From the NCBI GenBank assembly GCA_049323135.1, contig JBMOMH010000313.1, forward strand, positions 1-44,086: a stretch of 44,086 nucleotides of DNA. Direction: 5' to 3'. Position 1 is the stretch's first letter, and each line of letters starts with the position of its first letter. The notes under the pieces were generated by a model. That model had not been told where the DNA came from. It did not search any database and saw only the letters and a program-made list of their open reading frames with translations. Below are positions 6,110 to 35,042 of the stretch, piece after piece. The DNA is from Actinomycetota bacterium (GTDB lineage: Bacteria; Actinomycetota; Actinomycetes; JBMOMH01). The position numbers were made by a program, and so were the translations under genes.

Positions 6110-6166
6110 CCGGCGGGGGGTCGCTCAGCGCCGCTCCCGGCGCCACAGCGTTGGTAGCTTGGGGGG

Positions 6167-6583
6167 GTGACCCGGGGACCGGCGCTGCGGCGCGGCGTGC
6201 TGGTCCTGGCGGTGGCCGCCGGGCTGGCGGTCATGCACGCGCTGGCCGTCGCGCCCCCCGATGCGGCCCGCGGCCCGATGGCCGCGGCGCACGCGGTCGC
6301 CGCCCACCCCGCCGATGCGCCCGCTGGCCTGTCGGCCGGGGAGGCCTCGCCGGCCCTGCCGGACGCCTCGGCCAGCCACTGCGCGCTGGCCGGTTCGGCC
6401 GCCCACGCCCCCGGGCACCCGGCGTCCTGCCTGGCCGTGCCGGGGTGGGGTCAGATGCTGCCCGGCAGTTCCGTCGCGCCCGGTCAGCCCGGCCCTCCGG
6501 CGTACGCCGAGCCGGCGGCACCGCCGGGCAGCGCGACTGGGCCGCCCCCGCCGCTGCTCCTCCTCGGCCGGCTGCGGGTGTAG
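6167..6583 (+). CDS. Small membrane/secreted protein with His/Cys, upstream of the multicopper oxidase (DUF6153-like)
   Basis: N-terminal hydrophobic stretch ending GLAVMHAL, HC and SCLA motifs, Pro-rich end (GPPPPLLLLGRLRV). Confidence 0.55.
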   Translation: MTRGPALRRGVLVLAVAAGLAVMHALAVAPPDAARGPMAAAHAVAAHPADAPAGLSAGEASPALPDASASHCALAGSAAHAPGHPASCLAVPGWGQMLPGSSVAPGQPGPPAYAEPAAPPGSATGPPPPLLLLGRLRV

Positions 6584-6656
6584 CAGGACGGACGGCCCCC
6601 TGCGTGGGGCCGATCGGCCGCTGACCCGTCCCGTCACCGTGAAGGAGCATCACACC

Positions 6657-8156
6657 ATGTCTGTGCCCCACCCTGTCCTGTCCCGCCGTCGACTGCTTCA
6701 GGGCGCCGGCGCGGTCTCTGCCGCCGGCCTGCTCAGCGCCTGCGGCCGGGCCGCCGTACCCGTGGCCGCCATCATCGGGCCGGCCGACCCCAGCGTCGCC
6801 GCGGCCGAGCAGGCCCGCCGGGTCGCCGGCGGCCGGGTGGTCGAGGCCACCCTGACCGCCCGGCCGACCCGGGTCGACCTCGGCGGCCTGGTCGTCGACA
6901 CCTGGGCGTACGACGACGTCGTGCCCGGCCGGCTGCTGCGAGCCCGCGCCGGTGACACGCTGCGGGTCGTTGTCCGCAACCAGTTGCCCGCCCCGACCAC
7001 GGTGCACTGGCACGGGATCGCGCTGCGCAACGACATGGACGGCGTCCCCGGGGTGACCCAGGACCCGATCGCCGCCGGGTCGTCGATGACCTACGAGTTC
7101 GTCGTACCCGACCCGGGCACGCACTGGTTCCACCCGCACGTGGGGGTGCAGCTGGACCGGGGCCTGTACGCCCCGCTCATCGTCGACGACCCGGCCGATC
7201 CGGGCCGGTACGACGCGGAGTGGGTGGTCGTCCTCGACGACTGGGTGGATGGCACCGGGCGCACTCCCGACGACGTGCTGCGCGAGCTGACCGCCGGCGG
7301 GCCGGGCGGTGGCATGGCCGGCATGCCGGGCATGGGGGGGATGGGTGGCATGGGCGGTGACAACCAGGGTGGCGACGTCACCTACCCCCACTACCTGGTG
7401 AACGGCCGGATCCCCTCCGCGCCCGCCACGCTCACCGGCAAACCGGGCCAGCGGGTGCGCATCCGGCTGCTCAATGCCGGTTCGGACACCGTGTTCCGGG
7501 TGGCCCTGGGCGGGCACCCGATGACGGTGACCCACACCGACGGGTTCCCCGTCCAGCCGGTGGAGACCGACGCCGTGCTGCTCGCCATGGGCGAGCGGTA
7601 CGACGTGTCGGTGACGCTCGGCGATGGGGCGTTCCCCCTGGTGGCCCTGCCGGAAGGCAAGCAGGGTGAGGCGCTGGCGGTGGTGCGCACCGGGGCCGGG
7701 GCGGTCCCCGCGCCCGGCGTACGGCCCGCCGAGCTGACCCGGCGCGTCCTGCTGGGCACCGCCCTGCGCGCGACGCCGGAGGTGACGCTGCCGGACCGAA
7801 AGCCGGACCGCACCTACGACCTGGGGCTGTCCGGCAACATGGCCAGCTACGTGTGGACCATCAACGGGCGCACCTTCGGCCAGCACCAGCCGCTGGCCAT
7901 GCGCCGCGGGGAGGCGGTGCGGTTGCGCTTCGCCAACCAGAGCATGATGTTCCACCCCATGCACGTGCACGGGCACACCTTCCAGGTGCGGGGCGCGAGC
8001 GGTCCCGGGCCGCGCAAGGACACCGTGCTCGTGCTGCCGATGCAGGCGGTTGTCGCCGACCTCGTCGCGGACAACCCCGGGCAGTGGGCCACCCACTGCC
8101 ACAACATCTACCACGCGGAGCGGGGGATGATGACGACGCTGTCCTACCAGGCGTGA
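6657..8156 (+). CDS. Multicopper oxidase, Tat lipoprotein (MmcO-like)
   Basis: SRRRLL Tat motif, LSAC lipobox, HWHG, WFHPH, HPMHVHGH, HCHNIYHAERGM, short Met/Gly-rich loop. RBS AAGGAG. Confidence 0.93.
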   Translation: MSVPHPVLSRRRLLQGAGAVSAAGLLSACGRAAVPVAAIIGPADPSVAAAEQARRVAGGRVVEATLTARPTRVDLGGLVVDTWAYDDVVPGRLLRARAGDTLRVVVRNQLPAPTTVHWHGIALRNDMDGVPGVTQDPIAAGSSMTYEFVVPDPGTHWFHPHVGVQLDRGLYAPLIVDDPADPGRYDAEWVVVLDDWVDGTGRTPDDVLRELTAGGPGGGMAGMPGMGGMGGMGGDNQGGDVTYPHYLVNGRIPSAPATLTGKPGQRVRIRLLNAGSDTVFRVALGGHPMTVTHTDGFPVQPVETDAVLLAMGERYDVSVTLGDGAFPLVALPEGKQGEALAVVRTGAGAVPAPGVRPAELTRRVLLGTALRATPEVTLPDRKPDRTYDLGLSGNMASYVWTINGRTFGQHQPLAMRRGEAVRLRFANQSMMFHPMHVHGHTFQVRGASGPGPRKDTVLVLPMQAVVADLVADNPGQWATHCHNIYHAERGMMTTLSYQA

Positions 8157-8184
8157 GCGCCCGCGGGGCGGAGCCGCGGCATGG

Positions 8185-9468
8185 TCACGTGCGGGCGTGC
8201 CGGTCGACGTCCGCGGTGAACTCCGCGACCATGTCCGGGGTCAGCGTGCGGCGCGTGGCGGTGATGGCCGCGAGGAAGTCTTCGGTGCCGGCGCGGGGCG
8301 CGCCGGCACCGAAGACGGCCCGTTCGAACACGAGCTGCGCTGCCTTGCGCGCCGCGAAGTCGATGTCCGCGGGCGTGAACAGCTCCGACGCGGCGACGAT
8401 CGCCGGCAGTTCGATTCCGCCATGCGGCATCGAGTCGACGTAGCGCTGCCAGATGGCTGCCCGGGCGGCCGCGTCCGGGGGGCCGATGGGGATGACGTAG
8501 TCGAACCGGCCGGGGCGAAGCAGCGCGGTGTCGAGCTCGCGCACCGAGTTGGTCGCACACACCAGCAGCCGCCCCTCCCGTTCCCGGAAGGCGGGGATCA
8601 GCTTCAGCATCTCGTTGGTGACGGTGTGGCCGTCGCGTGCCAGCCGACCCTCACGGCGTCCGGCGATCTCTTCGACCTCGTCGATGAAGAGCACGACGTG
8701 TTCCAACTCGGCGACGACGCCGAACGCCTCGGCCAGCCCCGACGCCAGGCCGGAGGGCGTGCCGTCGGCCAGCCGCGAGGGGAAGATCTCGACGAACGGC
8801 CAGCCGAGCCGGGCGGCGACGCCCTTGGCGAAGGTGGTCTTCCCCGTACCCGGCGGGCCGAAGAGCACGATGGCCCGTGGGGGGACGAGACCGGTCTGCT
8901 GGGCCAGGTCCGGGTGGGCCAGGGGCAGGATCACCCGGCGCTCGATGAGCTCCTTCTCCTGGACCATGCCGCCCAGGCGGTCCCACAGGCCCGGGTCGAC
9001 GCGCTGACCGCCGAGCCGGTCGAGCAGGTGCTGGTCGGCGGAGGTGTCCTCCTCCAGCTTCTGGAAGTAGAGGACGCCGCGTCGGACCTGGAAGCCGCAG
9101 TGGTCCAGCGCGGCGGCCCCGACGTCAGACTCGTCGCCGAGCAGCGCGCTGACGCGGCGGACACCGGCGGCGACGAGCCGGCGCTCCAGCTCGGTCAACA
9201 GCTGCGACCCGATGCCCCGCTGGCGCCACCGCGGTGACAGGCTGATCCGCAGGATCCAGCCGTGCTGGCCCTGCACCCGGCTCACCGCGCTGCCGACGAG
9301 CTCGTCGTCGACCGTGGCGACAACGGCCGGGTGCCCCTCACGCACCGCGCTGATCAGGTCGGTGATGCCCGACCAGGGAAGGCCACCGGAGGCGGCCGGG
9401 TCGTCCCAGAGGTGGACGGCCGACTCCAGGTCGTCGGGGTGGAAGGGTCGGACCCGCCATGCGGCCAT
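8185..9468 (-). CDS. GNAT acetyltransferase fused to an AAA ATPase
   Basis: N-terminal RQRGIG acetyl-CoA motif, Walker A GPPGTGKT, Walker B LFIDE, SRH ATNS...ALLRPGRFD. Confidence 0.9.
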   Translation of the reverse strand: MAAWRVRPFHPDDLESAVHLWDDPAASGGLPWSGITDLISAVREGHPAVVATVDDELVGSAVSRVQGQHGWILRISLSPRWRQRGIGSQLLTELERRLVAAGVRRVSALLGDESDVGAAALDHCGFQVRRGVLYFQKLEEDTSADQHLLDRLGGQRVDPGLWDRLGGMVQEKELIERRVILPLAHPDLAQQTGLVPPRAIVLFGPPGTGKTTFAKGVAARLGWPFVEIFPSRLADGTPSGLASGLAEAFGVVAELEHVVLFIDEVEEIAGRREGRLARDGHTVTNEMLKLIPAFREREGRLLVCATNSVRELDTALLRPGRFDYVIPIGPPDAAARAAIWQRYVDSMPHGGIELPAIVAASELFTPADIDFAARKAAQLVFERAVFGAGAPRAGTEDFLAAITATRRTLTPDMVAEFTADVDRHART

Positions 9469-9499
9469 CGTCGAGCGTCACCCGCGCCGGGTCGCGGGG

Positions 9500-9649
9500 C
9501 TACCCGTGATGGGCACCGGAACCGTTGGTACGGCGTTCCTCCGGCGGCAGCCGGTCCACGGCCCGTACCTCCCGCCAGAGGTACCCCAGCACGGCGGCGA
9601 ACAGCAGCAGCGCGCCCACCATCCACAGGCCCCACCACGTCACACCCAT
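9500..9649 (-). CDS. 49-aa single-TM peptide, candidate small oxidase subunit
   Basis: Manual translation MGVTWWGLWMVGALLLFAAVLGYLWREVRAVDRLPPEERRTNGSGAHHG*. Starts 9 nt after the subunit III stop, with AGGGA upstream and GC-rich third positions. Confidence 0.65.
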   Translation of the reverse strand: MGVTWWGLWMVGALLLFAAVLGYLWREVRAVDRLPPEERRTNGSGAHHG

Positions 9650-9658
9650 GCCGGATCC

Positions 9659-10210
9659 CTACACCACGTAGAAGGCGAACCACATCGCCAGCGAGGCCGC
9701 GACGACGAACGTCCAGAAGATCGACACGCCCTCACTCAGGAACCCGGTCTGGGCCGCCAGCCGGCCCCGGGCCGCCTGTACGGCGAACCCGAGCCAGACC
9801 AGGAGTCCGGCCGTCACGTGGGCGACGTCCAGGCCCAGGGCGAGGTAGAACACCTCGCCATAGCGGGACCCGGGCGCCAACCCCACGGTGGCCCACTCGA
9901 CCGCGAACCCGAGGAGGACCACGGCGGCCAGTGCGGAGGTGGCCAGGGCCCAGGGCACCGCCCGGGCCGGTTCGCGCCGGGCGGTGGAGGAGGCGCGGCG
10001 GGCCGACCACACGCTGACGACGAGGACGGCCATCAGCAGGGCGACCAGTGGCTGGTTGAGCCGGTCGGAGCGGCCCGTGCCCGCCAGGACGAAGCGGACC
10101 GCGATGGTGGTGACGAAAAGCATGCCCTCGCTGGCCAGGAAGAGCACGAGTCCGCCCCGGTACATGGCCACCTGGCGCCGCGACAGCGGCAGCGTCGTCG
10201 CCTCGCTCAT
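9659..10210 (-). CDS. ctaE: Heme-copper oxidase subunit III (short, 5-TM form)
   Basis: LFLASE motif, YGEVFY...HV, FWTFV. ATGA overlap with the subunit I stop. Confidence 0.8.
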   Translation of the reverse strand: MSEATTLPLSRRQVAMYRGGLVLFLASEGMLFVTTIAVRFVLAGTGRSDRLNQPLVALLMAVLVVSVWSARRASSTARREPARAVPWALATSALAAVVLLGFAVEWATVGLAPGSRYGEVFYLALGLDVAHVTAGLLVWLGFAVQAARGRLAAQTGFLSEGVSIFWTFVVAASLAMWFAFYVV

Positions 10211-12081
10211 CGGTCGGCGCTCCGCGAAGGCTGGAGCCTCCCACGATCCAGCGAGCCGTAGGTGTAGAAGTCCTGGTCCACGACGGGCTCCTCGTCGAAG
10301 TTCTCCTTCGGCGGTGGGGAGGACGTCTGCCATTCCAACGTCCTACCCTGCCAGGGGTTGGCGCCGGCCCGGGGAGCGCGGGCCCACGCCCAGATCAGGT
10401 GGATGACGTGGCCGACGAAGGAGATGCCCAGCAGGGCGCTGACCAACGAGACGACCAGGTTGACGGTGCCCAGGTAGGCGGGGTACTCGGCCACCCGGCG
10501 GTTCATCCCGTTCGCGCCCAGGTAGAACATCGGCAGGAACGTGCCGTTGAAGCCCAGGAACAGTGCCCAGCTGAGCACCTTCCCCCACCGTTCGTCGTAC
10601 CGGCGGCCGGAGACCTTGGGGAACCAGTAGTACCAGCCGGCCACCCAGGCAAAGATCATCCCGCCGATGATGGTGTAGTGGAAGTGGCTGACCACGAAGT
10701 ACGTGTCGTGCAGGAACAGGTTGGCGGGAGCGTCGGCGAGGAACACCCCGGTGACCCCGCCGATGAGGAAGTTGAACAGGCTCATGAGGACGAGCAGCAT
10801 CGGCGTGGTCAGGCGTATCCGACCTCGCCAGAGGGTGCCCAGTGCGGCCAGGTACATGAAGCCGGTGGGCACGGAGATGAGCTCGGTGGTCGTCATGAAC
10901 GGTACGAGTCGTTCCGCGGCCACGCCGGTGAACATGTGGTGCACCCAGACGATCCCGCTCATGATGCCGACCAGGACGAAACCGGCCACCGCCCAGCGGT
11001 ACGCGAACAGGGTCTTGCGCGCCATCACCGGGATGATCTCGAGCCAGACGCCGAACGCCGGCAGGATGATGATGTACACCTCCGGGTGCCCGAAGAGCCA
11101 GAACAGGTCCTGCCACAGGAGCGGCAGGCCCGACTCTTTGAAGAACGAGGTGGGCACGATCCGGTCGAGCAGTCCCATGACCATCGCCGTGCTCGCCACG
11201 GGGACCCACAGGATGTTGAGGATGCTGGTCACCAGCATGGCCCAGGCGAACATCGGTAGCCGTCGCCAGGTAAGGCCCGGCGCGCGCAGGTAGATGATGG
11301 TTGCGGTCACGTTGACCGCCGTGAGCACCGAGGACGTCCCCAGCGTCAGCACACCGAGGTAGTACAGCAGCTGCCCGCTGGCGTCCGTGGCGGCCAACGG
11401 CGCGTAGCCCGTCCAACCCGTCTGGAAGCCTCCGAGCAGGGGGGTCGCGGCGATGGCCAACACCCCGGCCGGGATGAACCAGTAGCTCAGAGCGTTGACC
11501 CGTGGGAACACCATGTCCTCTGCTCCGATGAGCAGCGGGACGAGGTAGTTGCCGAAGCCACCCACGATTCCCACGACGGCGACGGCAAAGAGCATGAGCG
11601 TGCCGTGGACGCCGACCGCCGTGTTGTACTGCTGGTTGGTGGCGAAGAGCGTACGGTCCGGCGTGGCGAGCTCGGCCCGCATGAACATGGCGACAAGGCC
11701 CGCCAGCAGGAACGTGCCTACCGCTGTCACCAGGTACTGCAGGCCGACGACCTTGTGGTCGGTGTTGAAGCGGAAGTACCTCGCCCATCCGGCGCCCTCG
11801 TCCCAGCGGCGGGTACCCCCCAGGAAGGGCCTCAGACCCGCCTCCCACGCTCCGATCCCCAAGAGCCAACCCGTCAGACCGCCCACGTATCCGGTGGTCA
11901 CGGCCGCCTGGGTGAGCCGGGGAGCCCCCTGCAGGAGGGCCGTGGCAAAGGCGACGAGCGCGAACCCGGTCACGCCCCACAAGAAGGACCGAAGCAGTGG
12001 CGCCAGTGGGTGCCGGCCCAGGCCGGGTGGGGACGAGATGGGCGCCGCGGTGGCCGGGGTCTCGAACACCTCCTCCCTCAC
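10207..12081 (-). CDS. ctaD: Heme-copper oxidase subunit I, A1-type, atypical K channel
   Basis: TDHK, VHGTLM, GWTGYAPL, GHPEVY, WVHHMF, LHDTYFVVSHFHY, GMNRR. Start GTG 12081 overlaps the subunit II stop. Confidence 0.95.
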   Translation of the reverse strand: MREEVFETPATAAPISSPPGLGRHPLAPLLRSFLWGVTGFALVAFATALLQGAPRLTQAAVTTGYVGGLTGWLLGIGAWEAGLRPFLGGTRRWDEGAGWARYFRFNTDHKVVGLQYLVTAVGTFLLAGLVAMFMRAELATPDRTLFATNQQYNTAVGVHGTLMLFAVAVVGIVGGFGNYLVPLLIGAEDMVFPRVNALSYWFIPAGVLAIAATPLLGGFQTGWTGYAPLAATDASGQLLYYLGVLTLGTSSVLTAVNVTATIIYLRAPGLTWRRLPMFAWAMLVTSILNILWVPVASTAMVMGLLDRIVPTSFFKESGLPLLWQDLFWLFGHPEVYIIILPAFGVWLEIIPVMARKTLFAYRWAVAGFVLVGIMSGIVWVHHMFTGVAAERLVPFMTTTELISVPTGFMYLAALGTLWRGRIRLTTPMLLVLMSLFNFLIGGVTGVFLADAPANLFLHDTYFVVSHFHYTIIGGMIFAWVAGWYYWFPKVSGRRYDERWGKVLSWALFLGFNGTFLPMFYLGANGMNRRVAEYPAYLGTVNLVVSLVSALLGISFVGHVIHLIWAWARAPRAGANPWQGRTLEWQTSSPPPKENFDEEPVVDQDFYTYGSLDRGRLQPSRSADR

Positions 12082-12845
12082 TGCGCACCCCCCCGGGCCT
12101 GGTCGGCGGCCCACCCTTGGAAGTCAGCCTCCTGGACGACCCGGGCGGGGGCCGCCATCTGGCCGTGTCCGACCCCGCACAGCTCGGCACACTGCACGCG
12201 GGTTCGCGGATCCTGGGCGGTGGACGTGAGCGTCGAGGGGGTCAACGTCAGGGTTCGCGTCTCCCCGGGAATGACGTCCATCTTGATGCGCATGGAGGGA
12301 ATCCAGAAGGCGTGGATCACGTCCTGGCTCCTCAGCGTGAAGCGGACTGGTCGTCCGAGGGGCATGACCAGCTCGGTGGCGTCACGGACGCCGTAGGCGG
12401 GGTAGCTGAACCGCCACTCCCACTGCCGGGCCAGCACGTCGACCTGCAGTGGGTCGGCGGCGGCGGCGCTGGAGCGGTCCAGCCGGCGAAGCCCCGTCAC
12501 CCCTGGGAAGATGACGACCAGCGTGGCCAGGCCGAGCGTCGTACCGAGCCAGGCGAGGGTGGCCCGACGATCCGTGTCGACCTGGTCGGCTGCGTCCTCC
12601 ACCTCCCCGGCAGGGGCACGGAAGCGGGTCAGCGCGAAGACGAGGGCGAGGGTGACGAAGGCGAACACTGGAACGACCAGTCGCAGCAGGACAACCAGGG
12701 CCTCATCAACCACTGCGCCCTCAGTGCTGGCCAGGAGGGGCAGGTTCCGGGCGAGGACGGTGACCGCCCACTCCCCAAGACCGGTGAGGGCGAGTCCCAG
12801 GACACCCAGCGCCCACCCGGGGTGCGCTCGCCACCACTGTCGCAT
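12078..12845 (-). CDS. ctaC: Heme-copper oxidase subunit II with a CuA site
   Basis: QWEWRFSYP, DVIHAFWIP, CAELCGVGHGQM. Confidence 0.93.
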   Translation of the reverse strand: MRQWWRAHPGWALGVLGLALTGLGEWAVTVLARNLPLLASTEGAVVDEALVVLLRLVVPVFAFVTLALVFALTRFRAPAGEVEDAADQVDTDRRATLAWLGTTLGLATLVVIFPGVTGLRRLDRSSAAAADPLQVDVLARQWEWRFSYPAYGVRDATELVMPLGRPVRFTLRSQDVIHAFWIPSMRIKMDVIPGETRTLTLTPSTLTSTAQDPRTRVQCAELCGVGHGQMAAPARVVQEADFQGWAADQARGGAQ

Positions 12846-12896
12846 CCTGGTCCTCCGTTGCCGTCGCCGCTTGCGTCGATAGCCTCCGCGGCCCGC

Positions 12897-13661
12897 TCAG
12901 CGCACCACCGTCACCTGGCCGCTCATCCCGTTCAGGTAGTGCTGACCGCTCTGCTGGAAACAGGCGAAGGTCCAGGTGCCCGGCAGGTCGGGCACGGTGA
13001 AGTCCAGGGTGACCCGGCCACCCCCGGCCAGGACGACCATGAGGCTGTCCATGCCGGGCACGCTGGCCATGCCGGGCATGCCGGTGGGGCTGGGCGTGGG
13101 GGTCATCCCGGGCATCCCGGGCATCCCGGGCATCCCGGTGGGGCTGGGCGTGGGGGTCATCCCGGGCATGCCGGGCATCCCGGTGGGGCTGGGCGTGGGG
13201 GTCATCCCGGGCATCCCGGGCATCCCGGGCATCCCGGTGGGGCTGGGCGTGGGGCTCATGCCGGTTACCGCGGCCATGCCGGGCATCAGCATCTGCACCC
13301 CCGTCTGATCCAGCACAGCCACGGAGACACCCCGAAAGAAGTCGGTGGCGAACCCATCCTGCGGTAGCCGGCCGACCACCGAGTCAGTCCACCTGACGTT
13401 CTGGCCGAGCATGAACTCGTGTGCCCGCGCCGGGTTGGACTGGCTGTCGTTCACGAGGGTGAGGCGGACCCGCTGCCCCACCGTCCAGACGAGCTGCTTC
13501 GGGGCGAAGCTGTAGTCGTCCATGCGTACGAGCACGCTGTCCGGCTGCTGGCGCACCGTCCGCTCAGTCGCCGAAGGCTGGCCCACCCACCAGACCAGGG
13601 CGATGACGGCGACCAGCGCAGTCACCAGGCTGGCCCCAAGCGAGCGCGTGGCCCGAGTCAT
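12897..13661 (-). CDS. Exported/anchored cupredoxin (CopI/plastocyanin-like) with an internal Met-rich repeat
   Basis: Start ATG 13661 overlaps the ctaB stop. Hydrophobic N-terminus, DYSFAP, HEF, and C-terminal ACF-QQSGQ-HYLNGM (type-1 Cu ligands H, C, H, M). Confidence 0.85.
   Translation of the reverse strand: MTRATRSLGASLVTALVAVIALVWWVGQPSATERTVRQQPDSVLVRMDDYSFAPKQLVWTVGQRVRLTLVNDSQSNPARAHEFMLGQNVRWTDSVVGRLPQDGFATDFFRGVSVAVLDQTGVQMLMPGMAAVTGMSPTPSPTGMPGMPGMPGMTPTPSPTGMPGMPGMTPTPSPTGMPGMPGMPGMTPTPSPTGMPGMASVPGMDSLMVVLAGGGRVTLDFTVPDLPGTWTFACFQQSGQHYLNGMSGQVTVVR
13068..13262 (-). repeat. Coding tandem repeat: four (S/T)PTPSPT units with nested GMP 9-mers
   Basis: On the + strand, CCGGTGGGGCTGGGCGTGGGG occurs four times, separated by (CATCCCGGG)n. 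Confidence 0.95.
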
Positions 13662-14614
13662 GACGCGAGGAACCCTCGTACGAGTACGTCGACCGCCACG
13701 GCGGCGAACAGCAACGTCAGGTAGGAGATCGATCGGCGGAACAGGTCCAGCGACGCAGAGCCGGGTGTCTCTCCCACGCCGTGCAGCCGGTAGGCGGCGC
13801 GCAGCAGGTCGGCGCCGGCGGCGGCCGCTACGGCGGCGTACAGCCAACCCAGACCGGCCACCGGCCAGAGCACAAGTGACGTCAGGACCGTGGCCCAGGT
13901 GTAGGCGAGGATCTGACGTGTTACGACCCTGGTAGGAGCCACCACCGGCAGCATCGGGACGCCGGCCCTCGCGTAGTCGTCGCGGAACCGCAGGGCCAGG
14001 GCCCAGAAGTGCGGCGGTGTCCAGAAGAACACGACCAGGAACATCAGCCAGGGCGTCCAGGACAGCGACCCGGTCACCGCCGCCCACCCCACGAGCACCG
14101 GGAGGCAGCCGGCGGCACCACCCCACACGATGTTCTGAGCGGTACGCCGCTTGAGGACGAGGGTGTAGCCGAGGACATAGCCGACCAGGCCGCCGTCCGC
14201 CAAGGCGACGGCGAGCAGCGGGGTCGTGGCGAGCAGCACGGCGTTGCCCACCACGGCGAGGGCCAGGCCGAAGACCAGCGCGGCCCGCACACTCACGGCC
14301 CGGCTCGGGAGCGGCCGCCGAGCCGTACGGCGCATCAGGGCGTCGATGTCCCGGTCCAGGTAGCAGTTGAAGGTGTTCGCGCTTCCGGCGGCCAGGGCAC
14401 CGCCGAGCAGGGTGCCGATGAGGAGCGGCGGGGCGGGCAGCCGCCCGGCCGCGAGCACCATGGCAGGGACCGTGGTCACGAGCAGGAGCTCGATGATCCG
14501 TGGCTTGGTGAGGGCTAGGTAGGCGTGAAGGGTGTCGGCGGCCGCCCTGGTCGCCGCGGTTACCCGCAGTTCCGTCGTGGGTGCTGTCCCGGCAGCGGCA
14601 CTGTTGGCGTCCAC
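13658..14614 (-). CDS. ctaB: Protoheme IX farnesyltransferase (heme O synthase)
   Basis: LTKPRI, NCYLDRDIDALMRRTARRPLP, LKRRT, FFWTPPHFWAL, DDYARAGVPMLP. Confidence 0.95.
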   Translation of the reverse strand: MDANSAAAGTAPTTELRVTAATRAAADTLHAYLALTKPRIIELLLVTTVPAMVLAAGRLPAPPLLIGTLLGGALAAGSANTFNCYLDRDIDALMRRTARRPLPSRAVSVRAALVFGLALAVVGNAVLLATTPLLAVALADGGLVGYVLGYTLVLKRRTAQNIVWGGAAGCLPVLVGWAAVTGSLSWTPWLMFLVVFFWTPPHFWALALRFRDDYARAGVPMLPVVAPTRVVTRQILAYTWATVLTSLVLWPVAGLGWLYAAVAAAAGADLLRAAYRLHGVGETPGSASLDLFRRSISYLTLLFAAVAVDVLVRGFLAS

Positions 14615-15804
14615 AAGGGGTCAGTGTCACCTTCCCCTGGCCCAGTGGTCACCCTGCCGCGGGTAGCTGTCATCGCATTGTCATGAACGGCGTCCACGGG
14701 CAGCCACAGGCTGAAGCGCGCCCCCTGCCCGGGCGTACCCTCGGCGCCGACCGCACCGCCGTGGGCGCGGGCCACGCCGGCCACGATGGGCAGGCCGAGG
14801 CCAGCCCCCGAGCCCTGATCCCGTCGGGTTCTCCGGTAGAACCGGTCGAACAGGTGGGCGGCTTCGTCGGCGGCGAACCCGACCCCGTCGTCCTCGACCT
14901 GCACCAGGACGGGCGTCGCTGGCCGGCCAGGGTCGTGCCGGGCCCGGACCGTGATGAGGCCCTCCTCGTCGGTCGCGGCCACCGCGTTCTCGACGAGTGC
15001 GTCCAGTGCCGCCTCCAGGCGATCGGCGTCGGCCCACAGTCCGTCGACACCGTCCACCTCGACCCGCCAGCGCCGAGGGACCACGACGGCGAACCGGTCC
15101 ACGCAGGTCCGAAGCAGTGTGCCCAGGTCCACTCGCGTGACGTGCAGGGGGCCGGCGGCGAGGGCACTGAGGGCAAGGAGGCGATCGGCGACCCGGGCCA
15201 GCCGGCTGAGCTCGGCGACCGCGCAGGCCAGGTCCTCGGCCAGGTCAGGACTGTCGGGGCCGGCGGCCTGGGCCAGCTCGACATACCCCCGGGCCACCGC
15301 GATCGGCGTACGCAGCTGGTGGGAGGCCTCCCGGAGAAACGCCTGCTCCCGCTCGAGCGCCTCGCGTTCCGCGGCCAGGGCGCGGTTCGCCGTGACCACG
15401 GCCGCCTGACGCCGCCGCGCGTGCCAGACCATCACCCCGAAGACCGCGGCCATCAAGGGCACCTCGGCCACGATCTGCGGGCCGGCGGCACCCCGGGCCA
15501 GCGGGGGCAGCAGGGCCGCCAGCGACGCGGTGGCCACCGCGGCGGCGAGCAGCAGCGTCCGGCGCCCAGACCACGCCCGGAAGCCGTAGAGCAGCGTGAA
15601 CGAAATCCAGATGACGTGGAAGGGGACCGTCTGGAAGCCAGGGAGGACGAGGATCGCGAGCAGCAGGGCGGCCAGGGCCAGGCCACCCCAGGCCAGGTCC
15701 GCCCCGGCACCCGACAGTGGGGTGCCGAGCCTGAGCCTTGGCGCGAGCCTTGATCTGAGCCGGCCTACCGCGGCGGCGGCGCGTGGCACGGCGATCTGGT
15801 CCAT
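14560..15804 (-). CDS. Sensor histidine kinase, no large extracellular domain
   Basis: About 4 closely spaced TM helices, H-box SHQLRTP, LVENA, VEDDGVG, FDRFYR, GAGLGL. Confidence 0.9.
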   Translation of the reverse strand: MDQIAVPRAAAAVGRLRSRLAPRLRLGTPLSGAGADLAWGGLALAALLLAILVLPGFQTVPFHVIWISFTLLYGFRAWSGRRTLLLAAAVATASLAALLPPLARGAAGPQIVAEVPLMAAVFGVMVWHARRRQAAVVTANRALAAEREALEREQAFLREASHQLRTPIAVARGYVELAQAAGPDSPDLAEDLACAVAELSRLARVADRLLALSALAAGPLHVTRVDLGTLLRTCVDRFAVVVPRRWRVEVDGVDGLWADADRLEAALDALVENAVAATDEEGLITVRARHDPGRPATPVLVQVEDDGVGFAADEAAHLFDRFYRRTRRDQGSGAGLGLPIVAGVARAHGGAVGAEGTPGQGARFSLWLPVDAVHDNAMTATRGRVTTGPGEGDTDPLWTPTVPLPGQHPRRNCG

Positions 15805-16479
15805 TCACGCCTCCAGGGTGTAGCCCAGGTGGCGCACGGTCGCGATGGTCCCTGCGGGCAGCTTCGCTCGCAGGCGACGGACGTAGACATCGACGACGTT
15901 GCTGCCCGGGTCGAAGGTGAACCCCCACACGCTGGCCAGCAGCTCCTCCCGTGTGCAGATCTCCCCAGCCCGGGTCATCAGCTGCGCCAGCAGCAGGCAC
16001 TCCCGCCGGGACAGCCCGATGGACTCGCCGCCGACCGCTACCACCCGACGTCGCCGGTCGAGGGACAGCGTCCCAACCTGCAGTGGTCCGGGCTGGTCCA
16101 CCCGCCGGCTGGTCGGTTCGACGTCCCGCAGCCGGGCGCGCACCCGGGCCAGCAGCTCGGCGAGGGCGAAGGGCTTGGCCAGGTAGTCGACCGCCCCCCC
16201 ATCCAGGCAGCGCACCTTGGCCTGAACCTCGCCGATTGCGGACAGCACGAGGACACGCTGTCCCGGTCGTCGTGCCAGCAGGTGGGCGAGGACCTGATCG
16301 CCCGACATGGTCGGCAGTATCAGGTCGAGCAGCACCAGGTCGTAGGTGGTGGCGTCGGCCCGCTCCAGCGCTTCGGGGCCGTCACTCGCTGCGTCCACGA
16401 GCAGGCCGGAGGAGGACAGGGCGCGGGAGAGGACCCGCTGCATTCCCGGCTCGTCGTCGACGACGAGGACTCGCGCCAT
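15805..16479 (-). CDS. OmpR-family response regulator
   Basis: VLVVDDE, LLDLILP, DYLAKPF, winged helix SNVVDVYVRRLRAKL. ATG at 16479. Confidence 0.93.
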   Translation of the reverse strand: MARVLVVDDEPGMQRVLSRALSSSGLLVDAASDGPEALERADATTYDLVLLDLILPTMSGDQVLAHLLARRPGQRVLVLSAIGEVQAKVRCLDGGAVDYLAKPFALAELLARVRARLRDVEPTSRRVDQPGPLQVGTLSLDRRRRVVAVGGESIGLSRRECLLLAQLMTRAGEICTREELLASVWGFTFDPGSNVVDVYVRRLRAKLPAGTIATVRHLGYTLEA

Positions 16480-16532
16480 GCGCCCACCCCTCTCCCTACC
16501 AGTATGCGCACGGGTGTTCGGCAGCGGGGGAC

Positions 16533-18503
16533 TCAGCCGGCGCGGCGGGGGCGGCGGCCGCGGCGGGACCGCAGGTAGTCCGACACCACGTACTCGCCTA
16601 GCCGGTCCTGGTCCGGCAGGAACACCCGCCCCCCGTTGCGCCGCGCGATCTCCTCTGCGAACGCGGTGAGCCGGGGGTCGTCGTCGAGCTGGAAGACGTT
16701 GATGGTGGCGCCCCGCCGGGTAACCCGGTCGACCTCGGCCAGGGTCCGGGCCACGGTCTCCGGGGCCGGGGGCCAGTCGAAGAAGGCCTCCCCGTCGGGC
16801 AGCAGGTGCGCGGTCGGCTCGCCGTCGGTGACGACGAGCACCACCGGCTCGGCGCCGGGATGCCGGTCCAGGTGGCGGCCGGCGAGCAGCAGCGCGTGCT
16901 GCAGGTTCGTCCCCTGCACCAGGTCCCAGTCCAGCCCCACCAGGTCGGTCTCCCCGAGGACCCGGGCGTGCGAGGAGAACCCGATGACCTGGATGGCGTC
17001 CTGCGGGTAGCGGGTCGCCACCAGCGCGTGCAGGGCCAGCGCCGTGGACTTCGCGGCGCCCCAGGTGCCCCGCAGCACCATCGAGTAGGACAGGTCGACC
17101 AGCAGGCACACCGCGGCGCCGCTGCGCCGCTCGGTCTCCGCCACCTCGAAGTCGTCGACGGCCAGCCGCACCCGCCCGCCGGTCGGCCCGGTCCGTAGCA
17201 GCGCATTGCGCACGGTGCGGGCCACATCCAGCGGCTGCTCGTCGCCGAACTGCCAGGGCCGCGAGCCGCCGGTGAGCTCCCCGGCGGCCCCGCTGCGCGC
17301 CGCGTCGTGGTCGCCCCGCCCGGTGGCGTCCACCCGGGCGAAGATGCGGCGCAGCGCGGTGGCGCCGATGCGGCGTACCGCCTTCGGGGTGAGCTCCAGC
17401 TGCCCGTCCCGGCGGCTGAGGTAGCCCTGCGCCTGCAGCTCCCGCTCGATCCGCCGCAGCGCGGCCAGGTCGTCGACGGCCTGGCGCCCCAGCGCCCGGC
17501 GTACCGCCTCCTCGTCGACGTCGGCCAGGTCGGCGCCCGGGTAGTCCTGCCCGAGGGTGGCGTCCAGCGCGTCGAGGTCGGCCAGCTCCTCCAACGCGGT
17601 GGTCGCGTCCCCCAGGCCGAGGGGGTTCTCCCCGCCCAGCCGCCGGCGTCCGCCCCAGTCCAGGTCGCCGCGCCGGGCCCGCAGCGCGGCGGCCAGCCGG
17701 GCCATCTCCTCGGCCAGGCCGGTGCCCGCCATGGCCTGGGCGACCAGCCCGGCCAGCTCCTCCCGCTGCCCGGGGGACAGGGAGGCGAGCAGCCGGGACG
17801 CGGCGGCGGCCCGCCGGGCCAGGCTGTCCACCAGCTCCTCGAGCGTCGCCGGCTGCTCGGGGAAGAACTCCCCGTGCCGGCGCAGGAACTCGGCGAACTG
17901 CGCGCGGGTGTCCTCCCCGCGGTCGTCGGCCGCGAGCAGCGCGTTGAGGTCGGCCAGCATCTGCTGCAGCCGGCTGAAGGCCGCCGGGTCCTGCCCCCCC
18001 TGGCGCAGCGCGTCCCGCAGCCCGCGGAACTGGCTGTCGAGCACCTCCCGGCGCAGCAGGTCCCGGATCTCCTCGTACGACGCCCGCGCGTCGGCGGAGC
18101 GCCAGTCGTAGTCGGCCAGCTCGCGCACCGCCCGGGCGGTGTCGCCGGGCAGCGCATCCAGCTGGGCCTCGCGCAGCCGGGCGTCGTCGGACGGGTCGGG
18201 GAACAGGGTGGCCCGCTCCTGGCCCACCGCCCGGTCCAGCAGCGCGCGGACCTGCTCGAGCGTGCCGTCGAGGCGCCCGGCGCGGGTAAGCTCGCGGCAC
18301 CGGCGCCGGGCCTGGGCGCGCAGCGCGTCCAGGCCACGCAGCCCGGCCGCGCCGCGGCGCAGCAGCCCGCGCAGCGCCGCTGTGGGGTTGGTGCCGGCGA
18401 GCACCGCGTCGCCCAGCTCGTCCAGCGCCCGGCGCACGTCGTACGGCGGCGCCAGCGGGTCCGGCCCGTCGTGCCAGCTGCCGTACCGGTAGCCGCGCGC
18501 CAT
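16533..18503 (-). CDS. VWA domain protein (Rv0959-like)
   Basis: MIDAS DLSYSM, GTNLQHAL, VTDGEPTAH. N-terminal YRYGSWHDGPDPLAPP. Confidence 0.88.
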   Translation of the reverse strand: MARGYRYGSWHDGPDPLAPPYDVRRALDELGDAVLAGTNPTAALRGLLRRGAAGLRGLDALRAQARRRCRELTRAGRLDGTLEQVRALLDRAVGQERATLFPDPSDDARLREAQLDALPGDTARAVRELADYDWRSADARASYEEIRDLLRREVLDSQFRGLRDALRQGGQDPAAFSRLQQMLADLNALLAADDRGEDTRAQFAEFLRRHGEFFPEQPATLEELVDSLARRAAAASRLLASLSPGQREELAGLVAQAMAGTGLAEEMARLAAALRARRGDLDWGGRRRLGGENPLGLGDATTALEELADLDALDATLGQDYPGADLADVDEEAVRRALGRQAVDDLAALRRIERELQAQGYLSRRDGQLELTPKAVRRIGATALRRIFARVDATGRGDHDAARSGAAGELTGGSRPWQFGDEQPLDVARTVRNALLRTGPTGGRVRLAVDDFEVAETERRSGAAVCLLVDLSYSMVLRGTWGAAKSTALALHALVATRYPQDAIQVIGFSSHARVLGETDLVGLDWDLVQGTNLQHALLLAGRHLDRHPGAEPVVLVVTDGEPTAHLLPDGEAFFDWPPAPETVARTLAEVDRVTRRGATINVFQLDDDPRLTAFAEEIARRNGGRVFLPDQDRLGEYVVSDYLRSRRGRRPRRAG

Positions 18504-18505
18504 GC

Positions 18506-19918
18506 TCAGCCGCCGTACACGGTGCGGCCGTCGACCGCGTCCTTGGCGATGCGCCGCCCCAGCCACAGCCCTTCCAGGGCGAACTCCAGCGCCGCGGCCG
18601 CCAGGCCGGGGGTCTCGCCCTCCCCGTCGGCGTCCAGCCGGGCCATCAGCTGGGCCAGGCCGGGCACCGGCCCCACCCGGTGCAGTAGCTCCCCGGCGGG
18701 GACCAGCTCCCCGGTCTCCACGGTCGCCCCCTCGTCGAAGCGGGCGACCAGGCCGGACAGGTCGGCCCCGCCCAGCCGGCGGCGGAAGGTCTCGGCGGTG
18801 GCCCGGCGCAGCAGGTGGGTCAGCACCTCAGCCTCCCGGCCCTCCTCGCTGACCTCGAACTCCACCTTGCCGCGCAGCGTCTGCACCACCGCGGGCAGGT
18901 CGCAAACCCGGGCTACCGGGGGCTCCTCGCCGGTGAGCGCGGCGCGGCGCACCGCACCGGCGGCCACCGTCTCCGCGGCGGCGATGGCGAACCGGGCGGA
19001 CACGCCGGACCGGGTGTCCACGGCGGGGGACTCCCGAACCGCCCGGGTGAACCGGGCCAGCACCTCCAGCAGGTGGCCCGGCACCGTGGCGCCGGGCCCC
19101 CCGCCGTCTGCGGACCAGCGCAGGTGCGCCTCCTGGCGCAGCAGGTCCAGCTCGTCGTCGAGGGACACCGGGTAGTGGGTGCGGATCTCTGCGCCGAACC
19201 GGTCCTTCAGCGGGGTGATGATGCGGCCCCGGTTGGTGTAGTCCTCCGGGTTGGCGCTGGCCACCAGCAGCAGGTCCAGCGGCAGCCGCAGCGCGTACCC
19301 GCGGACCTGGATGTCGCGCTCCTCGAGCACGTTCAGCAGGGCCACTTGGATCCGCTCGGCCAGGTCGGGTAGCTCGTTCACCGCGAACACCCCGCGGTTG
19401 GTGCGGGGCACCAGGCCGTAGTGCACCGTCTCCGGGTCGCCCAGCGGGCGGCCTTCGGCGACCTTGACCGGGTCGACGTCGCCGACCAGGTCCCCGACGC
19501 TGGTGTCCGGGGTGGCCAGCTTCTCGCCGTACCGCTCCGAACGGTGCCGCCAGGCGACGGGCAGCTCCTCGCCCAGGTCCGCGGCCAGCCGCCGGCAGCG
19601 CACGCACACCGGCGCGTACGGGTGGTCGTTGACCTCGCAGCCGGCGACCACCGGGGTCCACTCGTCGAGCAGGTCGACCAGGGTGCGCATCAGCCGGGTC
19701 TTGCCCTGGCCGCGCTCGCCGAGCAGCACCAGGTCGTGCCCGGCGAGCAGGGCCCGTTCCAGATGGGGGAGGACGGTGTCGTCGAAGCCGACGATCCCCG
19801 GGAAGCGGGGGACGCCGGACCGGAGCCGGGCGAGCAGGTTGGCCCGGATCTCGGACTTGACGCTGCGGTGGGTGTGGCCGATGGCGCGGAGGGCGGCGAG
19901 GCTGGTGGGACGGGTCAC
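18506..19918 (-). CDS. Mg-chelatase-like AAA+ ATPase (Rv0958-like)
   Basis: Walker A GERGQGKT, VNELPDLAERIQV, SANPEDYTNRGRIITPLKDRFG. Paired with the VWA gene. Confidence 0.88.
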   Translation of the reverse strand: MTRPTSLAALRAIGHTHRSVKSEIRANLLARLRSGVPRFPGIVGFDDTVLPHLERALLAGHDLVLLGERGQGKTRLMRTLVDLLDEWTPVVAGCEVNDHPYAPVCVRCRRLAADLGEELPVAWRHRSERYGEKLATPDTSVGDLVGDVDPVKVAEGRPLGDPETVHYGLVPRTNRGVFAVNELPDLAERIQVALLNVLEERDIQVRGYALRLPLDLLLVASANPEDYTNRGRIITPLKDRFGAEIRTHYPVSLDDELDLLRQEAHLRWSADGGGPGATVPGHLLEVLARFTRAVRESPAVDTRSGVSARFAIAAAETVAAGAVRRAALTGEEPPVARVCDLPAVVQTLRGKVEFEVSEEGREAEVLTHLLRRATAETFRRRLGGADLSGLVARFDEGATVETGELVPAGELLHRVGPVPGLAQLMARLDADGEGETPGLAAAALEFALEGLWLGRRIAKDAVDGRTVYGG

Positions 19919-19990
19919 CCGTCGACCGTACGTCGCCGGCCGGGCCGCTGCCCAGGCGCCCGGCTGGGATAGTGCCCGGTCGGGCGCAGC

Positions 19991-20983
19991 ATGATGGGCC
20001 CGGATGCCGTCGACCCCCGGGAGGCCTGGGTGCCGGAGCAGCGGGCCGTCCTGGCGCTCGACCTGGGCGGCAACACGTTCGCTGGGGCGGTTGTCGACCA
20101 GGGCGGTCGGATCCTCGAGTCCGCCCGCGTCCGGGTCCCGCCCGGCGGGGACGCGGAGACGCTGTGGTGGGCCCTGGACGACCTGGTCGGACGGCTGGTG
20201 GACCGATCCCCGGGGCGGTACGCCGGGGTGGGCGTCGGCTGCAGCGGGCCGATGCGGTGGCCAGCGGGGGAGGTGTCCCCGGTCAACGTGCCCGGCTGGC
20301 GGGGCTTCCCGCTGGCCCAGCGGCTGGCCCAGCGCCTGGACTCCCGGCTGGCCGGCGAGGTCGTGCGGGTGCACAACGACGCGGTCTGCGCGGCCGTCGG
20401 CGAGCACTGGCGGGGCGCCGGGCGCGGCACGTCGAGCCTGCTCGGCGTGGTGGTGTCCACCGGTGTGGGCGGCGGCCTGGTCCTCGACGGCCGGCTGGTC
20501 GACGGACCGAGTGGCAACGCCGGGCATATCGGCCACGTCGTGGTCGACCCGGACGGGGAGCCCTGCGGGTGCGGGGGCATCGGCTGCCTGGAGACGGTGG
20601 CCAGCGGCCCCGGGCTGGTCCGGTGGGCCACCGCGCAGGGCTGGCGGCACCCCGGCGGCGACGCCCGTCACCTGGCCCTGGACGCCGAGCGGGGGCATCC
20701 GGTGGCCCAGCGCGCCCTGGCCCGCGCCGGGCGGGCGCTGGGCACGGCCATCGCGTCGGCGACGCACCTGTGCGACCTGCAGGTGGTGACCGTGGGCGGG
20801 GGGGTGGCGCAGGCGGGGCCGCTGCTGCTGGGTCCGGTGGAGGAGGCGGTACGCCGGCACGCCCGGCTGGCGTTCGCCCGGGACGTGCGGGTGGTACCTG
20901 CGGCGCTGGGCATGGACGCCGGCCTGGTGGGTGCCGCCGCCCTGGTCCTCGCCGGCGGCCGCTACTGGTCGCCGGCCCGCTGA
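19991..20983 (+). CDS. ROK family sugar kinase/regulator
   Basis: ALDLGG, HNDA, STGVGGG, GHIGH, CGCGGIGCLE. Confidence 0.9.
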   Translation: MMGPDAVDPREAWVPEQRAVLALDLGGNTFAGAVVDQGGRILESARVRVPPGGDAETLWWALDDLVGRLVDRSPGRYAGVGVGCSGPMRWPAGEVSPVNVPGWRGFPLAQRLAQRLDSRLAGEVVRVHNDAVCAAVGEHWRGAGRGTSSLLGVVVSTGVGGGLVLDGRLVDGPSGNAGHIGHVVVDPDGEPCGCGGIGCLETVASGPGLVRWATAQGWRHPGGDARHLALDAERGHPVAQRALARAGRALGTAIASATHLCDLQVVTVGGGVAQAGPLLLGPVEEAVRRHARLAFARDVRVVPAALGMDAGLVGAAALVLAGGRYWSPAR

Positions 20984-34797: not shown

Positions 34798-35042
34798 GCG
34801 GTCTGGGCGGTCGGGAGGTAGAAGTCGCGATCCGCCAAGGCCGCCGCGTAGCCGAGAACCTGGCGCACGTCCTCGATCTCGAGGAAGTCAAAGCTCTCGC
34901 GGATCTCGTCGAACGTCTTGCCCGCCGCTAGGAGCTCCAGCAACTGCTGCGCGCTGAACCGGTAGCCGCGGATGCACGGCTGCCCGCCGAGCTTTCCGGG
35001 CTCCACCGTCAGTCGGTCGAAGCCGGGTACGGTGCTGGTCAT
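34794..35042 (-). CDS. DUF433 antitoxin
   Basis: PGKLGGQPCIRGYR, LEIEDVRQVLGYAA. Confidence 0.9.
   Translation of the reverse strand: MTSTVPGFDRLTVEPGKLGGQPCIRGYRFSAQQLLELLAAGKTFDEIRESFDFLEIEDVRQVLGYAAALADRDFYLPTAQTA

Follow-up and report, generated by a model that had tools for sequence, protein, structure and literature searches.

An AcoP-family cupredoxin encoded with an additional heme-copper oxidase in an actinobacterial genome, and its possible link to Cu(I)

From what donor does a terminal oxidase obtain electrons when its genes are clustered with that of a blue copper protein, and no cytochrome c or qcr gene is found among them? The question is raised by eight genes at positions 9500-16479 of contig JBMOMH010000313.1 (assembly GCA_049323135.1, an Actinomycetota bacterium), of which we analyzed positions 1 to 44,086, referred to here as the window (44,086 nt). 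An earlier account drawn from the letters alone, which we call the sequence-only reading, did not recognize the relationship on which an understanding of the cluster turns: its cupredoxin is a member of the AcoP family and is thereby connected with the rus operon of Acidithiobacillus ferrooxidans. It is very likely the AcoP-type partner of a dedicated oxidase. For the cluster as a whole, the explanation that we tentatively place first is an extra oxidase of the acoP-coxBACD type, under its own two-component system, which might be fed by Cu(I) through the cupredoxin. The genes are listed in their order within the cluster, together with an insert that interrupts the cupredoxin.

15805-16479, minus strand: OmpR-family response regulator, 224 aa (Response_reg and Trans_reg_C domains)
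14560-15804, minus strand: sensor histidine kinase, 414 aa (HisKA and HATPase_c domains)
13658-14614, minus strand: heme O synthase, a second ctaB, 318 aa (NF003349, 411 bits against 246)
12897-13661, minus strand: AcoP-family membrane-anchored type 1 copper protein, 254 aa (PDB, profile and fold matches)
13044..13298, minus strand: Met-rich insert in the cupredoxin, residues 122-206 (MPGMPGM and TPTPSPTG repeats)
12078-12845, minus strand: oxidase subunit II (CoxB), 255 aa (COX2 match, intact CuA site)
10207-12081, minus strand: oxidase subunit I (CoxA), 624 aa (COX1, E 1.8e-130, residues 112-542)
9659-10210, minus strand: short oxidase subunit III (CoxC), 183 aa (weak COX3/CtaE match)
9500-9649, minus strand: single-helix peptide, 49 aa, subunit IV-like (conserved small hydrophobic open reading frame)

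The cupredoxin and the oxidase encoded beside it

Pfam and NCBIfam models give only weak and partial matches to the cupredoxin (Cupredoxin_1, CopI), and its assignment to the AcoP family comes from three other comparisons. Searched alone against the PDB with phmmer, the protein matches AcoP (7z3b) at E 1.4e-19 in two stretches that flank the insert; a profile of 38 family sequences matches the same entry at E 5.8e-46; and 7z3b is the top Foldseek match of the AlphaFold model (E 2.9e-13, TM 0.85 on the target), which has a mean pLDDT of 81.7, rising above 90 outside the insert. The copper ligands H81, C234, H241 and M246 are invariant in 38/38 aligned sequences, with the ligand loop spaced C-x6-H-x4-M and reading CFQQSGQHYLNGM. 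Among the best 150 family representatives, 110 could be parsed by their ligand patterns, the other 40 being fragments, long multidomain proteins or differently spaced, and the x6 spacing is present in 95 of these 110. The model places an N-terminal membrane helix at residues 2-27, where a hydrophobic segment spans residues 8-26 (mean hydropathy 2.33). Further traits of the AcoP subfamily are physical binding to the oxidase and a green, high-potential copper site.

AcoP, the 'cytochrome c oxidase partner', is described from the rus operon of A. ferrooxidans, in which acoP lies between cyc1 and coxBACD (PMC4059628, PMC5328820, passages on the operon), and the passage on its ligand loop calls the C-x6-H-x4-M spacing previously unreported and unique to AcoP (PMC4059628). 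Excerpts of later accounts state that it binds the oxidase and is a possible electron donor and/or protector of the oxidase copper centers (PMC10804444), and that its levels rise with copper, with a proposed role in copper tolerance (PMC5328820). The window's system resembles AcoP-CoxBACD in its His-Cys-His-Met ligands, their spacing and the N-terminal anchor, in the order cupredoxin-II-I-III-small peptide, and in a shared subunit I clade that includes an N-terminal extension. It differs from the rus operon in having its own two-component system and ctaB and no cyc2, cyc1 or rusticyanin genes, and its cupredoxin carries an 85-residue Met-rich insert with three Met residues at its base, positions that the rus type fills with Ser or another residue. 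The hosts also differ, as the window comes from a high-GC metagenome-assembled genome (MAG) with no sign of an iron-oxidizing acidophile.

Two other assignments of the cupredoxin were rejected. The CopI model NF051440 scores 24.2 bits against a cut-off of 280 and covers residues 24-88 only, and no sulfocyanin or rusticyanin model matched at E<=0.01. Sulfocyanin/SoxM, halocyanin, auracyanin and rusticyanin are membrane-associated blue copper proteins encoded with, or feeding, heme-copper oxidases, but they represent cupredoxin subfamilies different from that of the window's protein.

The AcoP-like family is small, since an HMMER pass over 1.84 billion representative proteins with the window's cupredoxin returned 209 proteins at E<=0.001, 73 at 1e-10 and 17 at 1e-30; searches of a plasmid collection with this protein and with P0129 gave no match. 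According to the passage on distribution in PMC4059628, close AcoP homologues come from acidophiles, and only distant ones are mentioned there in halophiles. The labels of relatives that share the window's subunit I clade include Jiangellaceae, Hyphomonas, Rhodobacteraceae, Anaerolinea and Limnocylindria. To our knowledge none of these are known acidophiles, and an acidophile host, to which the 'A' of the name refers and which the published homologues of groups I and II have, looks non-essential for the AcoP family.

By its conserved motifs, the oxidase is a divergent A-family heme-copper oxidase made up of subunits II and I, a short subunit III and a one-helix peptide. Subunit II retains the CuA ligands H178, C219, C223, H227 and M230 and the electron-entry residue W142, all of them invariant in 18/18 clade sequences. 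Subunit I has a conserved N-terminal extension of ~105 aa, and H159, H332, Y336, H381, H382, H466, H468 and E334 lie in conserved motifs (heme and CuB ligands, cross-linked Tyr, HPEVY). The K-channel Lys column (helix VIII, PTGVK) is occupied by Met, compared with Lys in four canonical CtaD proteins, a difference that depends on the alignment. The D-channel Asp is retained in the window and replaced in the rus-type, Firmicute acidophile and sister-clade forms, the last of which are described below. Subunit III is recognized weakly (NF050119, 47.5 bits against a cut-off of 190; COX3, E 0.0048), and its homologues follow subunit I in relatives. After it, a reading frame with a WW..W helix and an R..RED-like motif is found in 8/10 relatives with a mappable subunit III end, a count that includes two near-identical pairs. 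Subunits I and II both score below the equivalog cut-offs (CtaD_CoxA, 566 against 670.75; CoxB, 132.7 against 147.7), and the actinobacterial NCBIfam models for subunits I, II and III score far under theirs. A complex prediction for the CoxB CuA domain with the cupredoxin domain gave a score of 0.00, which is no evidence either way.

The window belongs to a 2.97-Mb MAG that is 90.7% complete and that also encodes a housekeeping ctaC-ctaD pair with qcrB beside it (contig C55), a ctaA next to a housekeeping ctaB (contig C370), Sco (contig C10), and three CtaG-family genes elsewhere. The cluster therefore encodes an additional oxidase, and the normal ctaD/qcr set that the sequence-only reading had expected is present in the form of this second ctaD with its adjoining qcrB. 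The window's oxidase shares with the housekeeping CtaCDEF/QcrCAB system its A-family subunits I, II and III, the CuA site, HPEVY, and all heme and CuB ligands. Its subunit I, however, shares just 43% identity with that genome's housekeeping CtaD and is set apart by the N-terminal extension and the K-channel Met, and the partner of the oxidase is a cupredoxin instead of qcr products.

Reading frames were picked by third-position GC content (GC3), the window having a G+C content of ~74%. The eight genes fill 9500-16479 and have coding-type GC3 values of 0.86-0.95. The stop of the response regulator gene abuts the start of the kinase gene, the kinase gene and ctaB overlap by 55 nt, and three start/stop overlaps of 4 nt follow (ATGA at ctaB/cupredoxin and at I/III, GTGA at II/I), with gaps of 51 nt between the cupredoxin gene and that for subunit II and 9 nt between the subunit III gene and the peptide. 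Domain and family annotation finds none of the ctaA, Sco, CtaG, cytochrome c or qcr genes within the cluster. Both the tight same-strand packing of the eight genes and these absences had been described previously, and both descriptions hold. Identical pieces of the operon are also present in DNA of a second study, and no RNA run was listed for the operon.

AcoP genes and oxidase genes among relatives

A genome scan for subunit I kept 80 of at least 600 stretches, and the survey of the oxidase clade is accordingly a sample; a metagenome scan with a 14-row cupredoxin alignment contributed 20 loci. In a quick IQ-TREE analysis of 97 subunit I sequences, with SH-aLRT support only, the window's subunit I falls in a clade of 24 rows (SH-aLRT 99). 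An AcoP gene lies beside coxB in 13/13 of the clade rows with usable upstream DNA, the other 11 being ten database proteins without DNA context and locus L006, whose contig starts ~100 nt before coxB. Among 31 loci found through AcoP itself, coxB and coxA lie on the same strand within 3.5 kb in 25; of the six exceptions, two are truncated at most 320 nt from the gene, one consists of three AcoP-like genes in tandem, and three are lone genes. Because near-copies are common in this set, with ten rus-type loci and a match between L086 and L120, the 25 do not represent independent events. The sequence-only reading had suggested that the cupredoxin may be the dedicated donor of this oxidase, in which case it should be conserved beside homologous oxidases. 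That expectation is borne out by both counts, and a place as the dedicated partner gains support from membership in the AcoP family and from the conserved adjacency to coxB. A role for the cupredoxin as partner or donor is well supported by homology, and from its relation to A. ferrooxidans AcoP it likely binds the oxidase.

Ten loci (L093-L102) carry a 74-residue, Met-free form of AcoP. In the three whose flanks were annotated or translated (L094, L097 and L101) the AcoP gene is preceded by genes for a 485-496-aa protein and a cytochrome c of ~230 aa, and ctaB and/or a sulfocyanin/plastocyanin-like gene then follow. The larger protein of L094 contains a single CxxCH close to the N-terminus and is barrel-like in the rest, as in a cyc2-like protein, and the smaller is a dihaem cytochrome c; judged by these features, this is the rus layout. 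Subunit I from loci of this kind aligns with that of the window from residue 20-28 on, and the N-terminal extension is therefore common to the rus type. The rus-operon-type loci fall inside the window's subunit I clade. Sulfocyanin-like genes adjoin AcoP-cox clusters in L008, L097 and L101.

Some genomes hold several such clusters. Ferroacidibacillus organovorans (G404: L008, L128, L129) has three AcoP-coxB-coxA clusters, one of them preceded by a sulfocyanin gene, and a Bacillota MAG (G403: L007, L130) has two.

The sister clade of the window's oxidase contains 49 tree rows, mostly from Actinomycetota, in which the K-channel Lys is likewise substituted. In 48 sister-clade loci (L021-L080; for example L026:6097-6780 and L033:6187-6768) the gene directly upstream of coxB encodes a membrane-anchored protein, here protein X, which has no Pfam match and contains an invariant His, two Cys and a Met. 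The model of X has a pLDDT of 85.6 and its best fold match is rusticyanin (E 2e-5, TM ~0.5). Homology of X with AcoP was considered and rejected (hhalign probability 1.8%), and the two are treated as different cupredoxin-fold proteins. These clusters have the layout X-II-I-III-CtaG-ctaB, with a divergent pair of regulator and kinase genes followed by thioredoxin-like and Sco-fusion genes. Since X occupies this position and the regulator-kinase pair is homologous to that of the window, a cupredoxin partner is suggested as a general feature of these oxidases.

Across the whole superclade formed by the AcoP clade and its sister, the K-channel column is M, I, A, V or S. The existence of a large superclade that is without the K-channel Lys and always paired with a cupredoxin-fold protein anchored in the membrane is relevant to how Actinomycetota, which are without soluble cytochrome c, feed alternative oxidases.

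Methionine-rich segments and the source of electrons

Where the window's cupredoxin has the insert, A. ferrooxidans AcoP has four residues, lying between its positions 115 and 120. A tandem DNA array at 13050-13287, with periods of 54 and 99 (Tandem Repeats Finder), encodes the insert, which is modelled as disordered (pLDDT <60). The Met-rich loop of the sequence-only reading is thus real: it occupies residues 122-206, and 20 Met residues lie between the His and Cys copper ligands. Logan contigs of four DNA runs break inside the Met repeat, at 13110-13225, and the copy number of the repeat is given as assembled here.

Relatives vary in the same feature. Between the His and Cys ligands there are at least 5 Met in 83 of the 110 parsable representatives and at least 8 in 68, with none in the rus type, 0-4 in the Firmicute acidophile type, and 7-34 in other lineages. 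Met84, Met126 and Met208, at the base of the insert, occur together in 23 of the 38 aligned sequences, and the insert Met count is 2-22 in those 23 versus 0-3 in the other 15. By these counts Met-rich inserts are the rule in the AcoP family, and the rus-type protein that has been studied appears as an unusual Met-free form. The partner subunit shows a similar pattern, with Met-bearing C-terminal tails of 41-161 residues and 3-34 Met in 8/18 CoxB proteins; all eight adjoin a Met-rich AcoP, and six acidophile-type CoxB have tails of 21-27 residues with 0-1 Met. The Met-tailed proteins are those of L004, L005, L084, L086, L087, L089, L090 and L092, in whose tails MPGMKMP, GMNMNG and SMKMPMP are among the motifs. 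The four with the longest tails (L084, L089, L090, L092) have Gln for Glu in the CuA motif C-x-E-x-C.

The AcoP-oxidase module is already known; the Met-rich AcoP inserts and CoxB tails are new here. A full-text literature search turned up no paper that deals with AcoP homologues rich in Met, with CoxB tails of this kind, or with Cu(I) as a substrate of a heme-copper oxidase, and within the literature that joins 'AcoP' and 'cupredoxin' there was nothing on non-acidophile homologues with Met-rich loops. One AcoP-like protein is encoded by a cultured organism: P0138, or Tmar_1594 of Thermaerobacter marianensis DSM 12885, has 326 aa and 40 Met between its ligands, and is annotated only as hypothetical or as an EfeO-type cupredoxin-like protein.

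Copper genes lie near Met-rich clusters in three lineages: the window itself, L005, and L090/L092. L005 is flanked by genes for a YHS protein, an HMA-bearing P-type ATPase, a cation-efflux protein and an HMA chaperone, and L090/L092 by those for a multicopper oxidase (MCO) and an outer-membrane efflux protein. The neighbor in the window, 1.3 kb from the cluster, is also an MCO.

6657..8156, plus strand: multicopper oxidase of the copper-resistance type (three Cu-oxidase domains)

This CopA/PcoA-like protein has a twin-arginine (Tat) signal with a lipobox and a Met-rich loop, GMAGMPGMGGMGGMGG, and among NCBIfam models copper_res_A fits it best (E 9.2e-88; 295 bits, the cut-off being 479). Together, the Met inserts, the CoxB tails and the copper genes are comparative hints that would link the family with copper in a circumstantial way.

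The explanation that we prefer starts from what is observed, that is the gene content, the AcoP membership, the conserved pairing within the oxidase clade and the intact redox ligands. In it, the membrane-tethered cupredoxin at the outer face would be the partner of the CuA domain, and the operon's own heme O synthase would raise the heme supply upon induction. The Met-rich loop, with the three conserved Met residues at its base, would capture extracytoplasmic Cu(I); the type 1 copper center would accept one electron from it, with release of Cu(II); and the electron would pass to CuA, heme a, heme a3-CuB and finally O2. Toxic Cu(I) would in this way be removed with a respiratory oxidase as the electron sink, and the oxidase may also take electrons from the ordinary chain. 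These elements differ in strength. Binding of Cu(I) by the loop is probable, and Cu(I) as an electron donor to the oxidase is possible, if short of probable. More doubtful is a 'split' cuprous oxidase in the full sense, in which Met-rich segments on the cupredoxin, and on CoxB in relatives, would recruit Cu(I), the type 1 and CuA centers would take the electron, and the oxidase would reduce O2.

Related chemistry has been proposed for other copper proteins. For CopI of Rubrivivax gelatinosus and others, the published model, as outlined in excerpts of PMC13308877, has a His/Met-rich region that binds Cu(I) and a cupredoxin center that then oxidizes it. CopI, however, is soluble, periplasmic and not encoded with an oxidase, whereas the cupredoxin of the window is tethered to the membrane and has a possible electron sink encoded alongside it. 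In CueO, Met-rich domains are reported to recruit Cu(I) to the type 1 center (PMC11494321, passages on CueO). CueO and CopA/PcoA resemble the window's cupredoxin in having a Met-rich flexible segment beside a type 1 electron-entry site, and the chemistry proposed is the same, from Cu(I) to Cu(II) with O2 as final acceptor (PMC11494321, the same passages). In contrast to these enzymes, the window's cupredoxin is not a member of the MCO family and has no trinuclear cluster; O2 reduction would fall to a separate membrane oxidase, which could conserve energy.

Several observations weigh against Cu(I) as the substrate. The relatives compared are kin, such that the counts of co-occurring Met overstate their support, and the window's own CoxB has a C-terminal tail of 25 aa with no Met. 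Copper genes accompany three of ~9 Met-rich lineages examined; none were seen in the flanks of L086/L120, L087, L121, L122 and L124, and the flank of L123 holds only a P-type ATPase in which no metal-binding domain was detected. The MCO of the window is on the opposite strand and provides context only. A. ferrooxidans AcoP is stated, in the part of PMC11494321 that concerns it, to have no cuprous oxidase activity on its own; the protein in that assay is without the loop, and the oxidase was absent. Any electron transfer from the type 1 center to CuA would depend on redox potentials. The two-component system does not resemble a copper sensor closely, as the regulator's best NCBIfam match, the heavy-metal subfamily TIGR01387, scores 180.8 bits against a cut-off of 279.2, the kinase scores 110.5 bits with TIGR01386 against 292.55, and the kinase is without a sizeable outer sensor domain of the CopS/CusS kind.

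A simpler arrangement would have the AcoP-like protein act as a tethered stand-in for cytochrome c, relaying electrons to the oxidase from the bcc complex or another respiratory donor, with redox, oxygen or the membrane providing the inducing signal for the operon, the Met-rich loop serving as a docking element or spacer, and Cu(I) being no substrate at all. We regard this as rather unlikely. It accords with the sister clade, where a different cupredoxin-fold protein stands at the same position in 48 loci under a homologous regulator-kinase pair, with the presence of qcrB in the genome, and with L121, which has cytochrome b, second cupredoxin and NADH dehydrogenase genes nearby. The kinase, moreover, looks membrane-embedded, as redox or quinone sensors often are. 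Yet such a relay leaves unexplained why AcoP and CoxB carry Met-rich segments in several phyla and not in the iron-oxidizer type, why a set of three Met residues is conserved at the base of the insert, and why copper genes lie near three lineages. Copper could also be cargo: the loop, with the CoxB tails in relatives, would capture Cu(I) so as to metallate or protect CuA and CuB, with no net Cu(I) oxidation. The AcoP authors, in excerpts of PMC10804444, propose a chaperone-like role, liken the extended loop to the protruding motifs of Sco and PCuAC, think that it serves partner contacts or such a role, and note that A. ferrooxidans is without Sco. The window's insert sits exactly in this extended-loop region (AcoP residues 115-120), the cluster is without Sco, CtaG and PCuAC, and the 90.7% complete genome gave no PCuAC match. 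Met/His-rich tails are known on PCuAC-type chaperones. We nonetheless consider this chaperone role unlikely, because Sco and three CtaG-family genes are available in trans and all four type 1 ligands are invariant, which points to a redox center and not a transfer site; and we know of no chaperone arrangement in which the Met-rich tails are on the client protein, as they are on CoxB.

The heme type raises a further alternative, which the sequence-only reading had offered: a stress oxidase with heme O instead of heme A, induced by hypoxia, NO or peroxide, to which the cupredoxin is accessory. It is in keeping with the dedicated ctaB, the lack of ctaA in the cluster, and the presence of ctaB also with the L090, L092 and L097 clusters and in the sister clade. 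It finds no support, however, in a genome that has ctaA elsewhere, beside the housekeeping ctaB; the sequence offers no means of distinguishing heme O from heme A, and because heme A is available in trans, 'heme o' is not readable from gene content. The rus-operon oxidase, the characterized member of the window's subunit I clade, we take to be a cytochrome c oxidase of the aa3 kind. A heme-O stress oxidase is thus very unlikely.

Studies of AcoP are confined to an extreme acidophile, where it is debated whether the protein is an electron donor, a low-pH protector of the oxidase, or a copper chaperone. The module is now found well outside acidophiles, and most relatives have Met-rich decorations typical of Cu(I)-handling proteins, which argues against an acid-specific role for AcoP. 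Were Cu(I) to act as a donor to the oxidase, both a new route of copper detoxification and a new kind of metal-oxidizing respiration would follow. A split cuprous oxidase would be the copper counterpart of the Fe(II)-oxidizing rus pathway across several phyla of non-acidophiles, with copper detoxification wired into the respiratory chain and perhaps even feeding it.

Regulation, origin and neighboring genes

The response regulator shares 47-54% identity with its counterparts next to oxidases of the sister clade, and 43% at most with its paralogues in the same genome. The kinase has hydrophobic segments at residues 37-55, 84-102 and 111-129, with short loops between them, giving a membrane-embedded N-terminus, and from residue 57 on it is 36-43% identical to kinases that adjoin the sister clade. 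A CopRS/CusRS-type copper sensor pair was considered as an assignment and rejected, as both proteins are below the heavy-metal cut-offs and no periplasmic metal-binding loop is present. The heme O synthase is well recognized (TIGR01473, 301.6 against a cut-off of 210.3). It is 61% identical to the housekeeping ctaB product on contig C370 and 56-62% to those of sister-clade and housekeeping genes, compared with 45-49% to ctaB of other AcoP clusters.

From these identities the regulator, the kinase and ctaB look actinobacterial, and we infer that the acoP-cox module may have been acquired horizontally and set under a regulator typical of the lineage. The window's order contains only this genome. 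A sample of 400 other genomes from its class yielded no full AcoP-like match and six partial ones (E 2e-5 to 9e-4), and a 400-genome sample of the phylum of L005 added eight further genomes with an AcoP-like protein at E<=1e-10, in 5/8 of them beside coxB/coxA.

Other regulators adjoin AcoP-like genes elsewhere. A NarL/LuxR-type regulator is found beside them in L090, L092, L122, L124, L125 and L126, accompanied in five of the six (not L122) by a HisKA_3 kinase; in L125 and L126 no oxidase lies near the AcoP-like gene. L090, L092 and L126 also share a gene for a YNCE-like beta-propeller protein.

The cluster had been called self-contained, a description that is not borne out, since same-strand genes lie both 53 nt upstream (VWA) and 31 nt downstream (GNAT-AAA).

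16533-19918, minus strand: VWA-domain gene and, before it, a chelatase-like AAA gene, directly upstream of the regulator gene with a 53-nt gap

AAA/VWA pairs of this kind insert metals into other enzymes; this one was not seen beside related clusters. The GNAT-AAA gene starts 31 nt after the peptide. A consensus scan of 8000-20200 for promoters and terminators gave 0 promoter-like sites and 1 terminator-like site, inside the subunit I gene, which is fewer than in shuffled sequences. Comparison of the upstream regions of three genes, those for the regulator, the MCO and the window's second cupredoxin, for a shared operator gave only GC-rich 10-mers of a chance-like kind.

Several further genes of the window lie outside the cluster. 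A 547-nt stretch at 6110-6656 on the plus strand, upstream of the likely MCO start (Tat signal and lipobox, ~6657), is a GC3-rich candidate frame of approximate coordinates for a small, anchored Ala/His/Pro-rich protein. At 2890-3707 on the minus strand are two genes that share 4 nt: one encodes a 107-aa Cupredoxin_1 protein that lacks His and has CGMGM at its end, the other a 165-aa membrane protein which contains a CCAHH motif and matches no family. A peptide methionine sulfoxide reductase (MsrA) is encoded at 4230-4883. Farther away, at 34411-35042 on the minus strand, DUF433 and PIN-like DUF5615 genes overlap by 4 nt in a toxin-antitoxin-like arrangement, with a pRiA4b ORF-3-like gene adjoining them.

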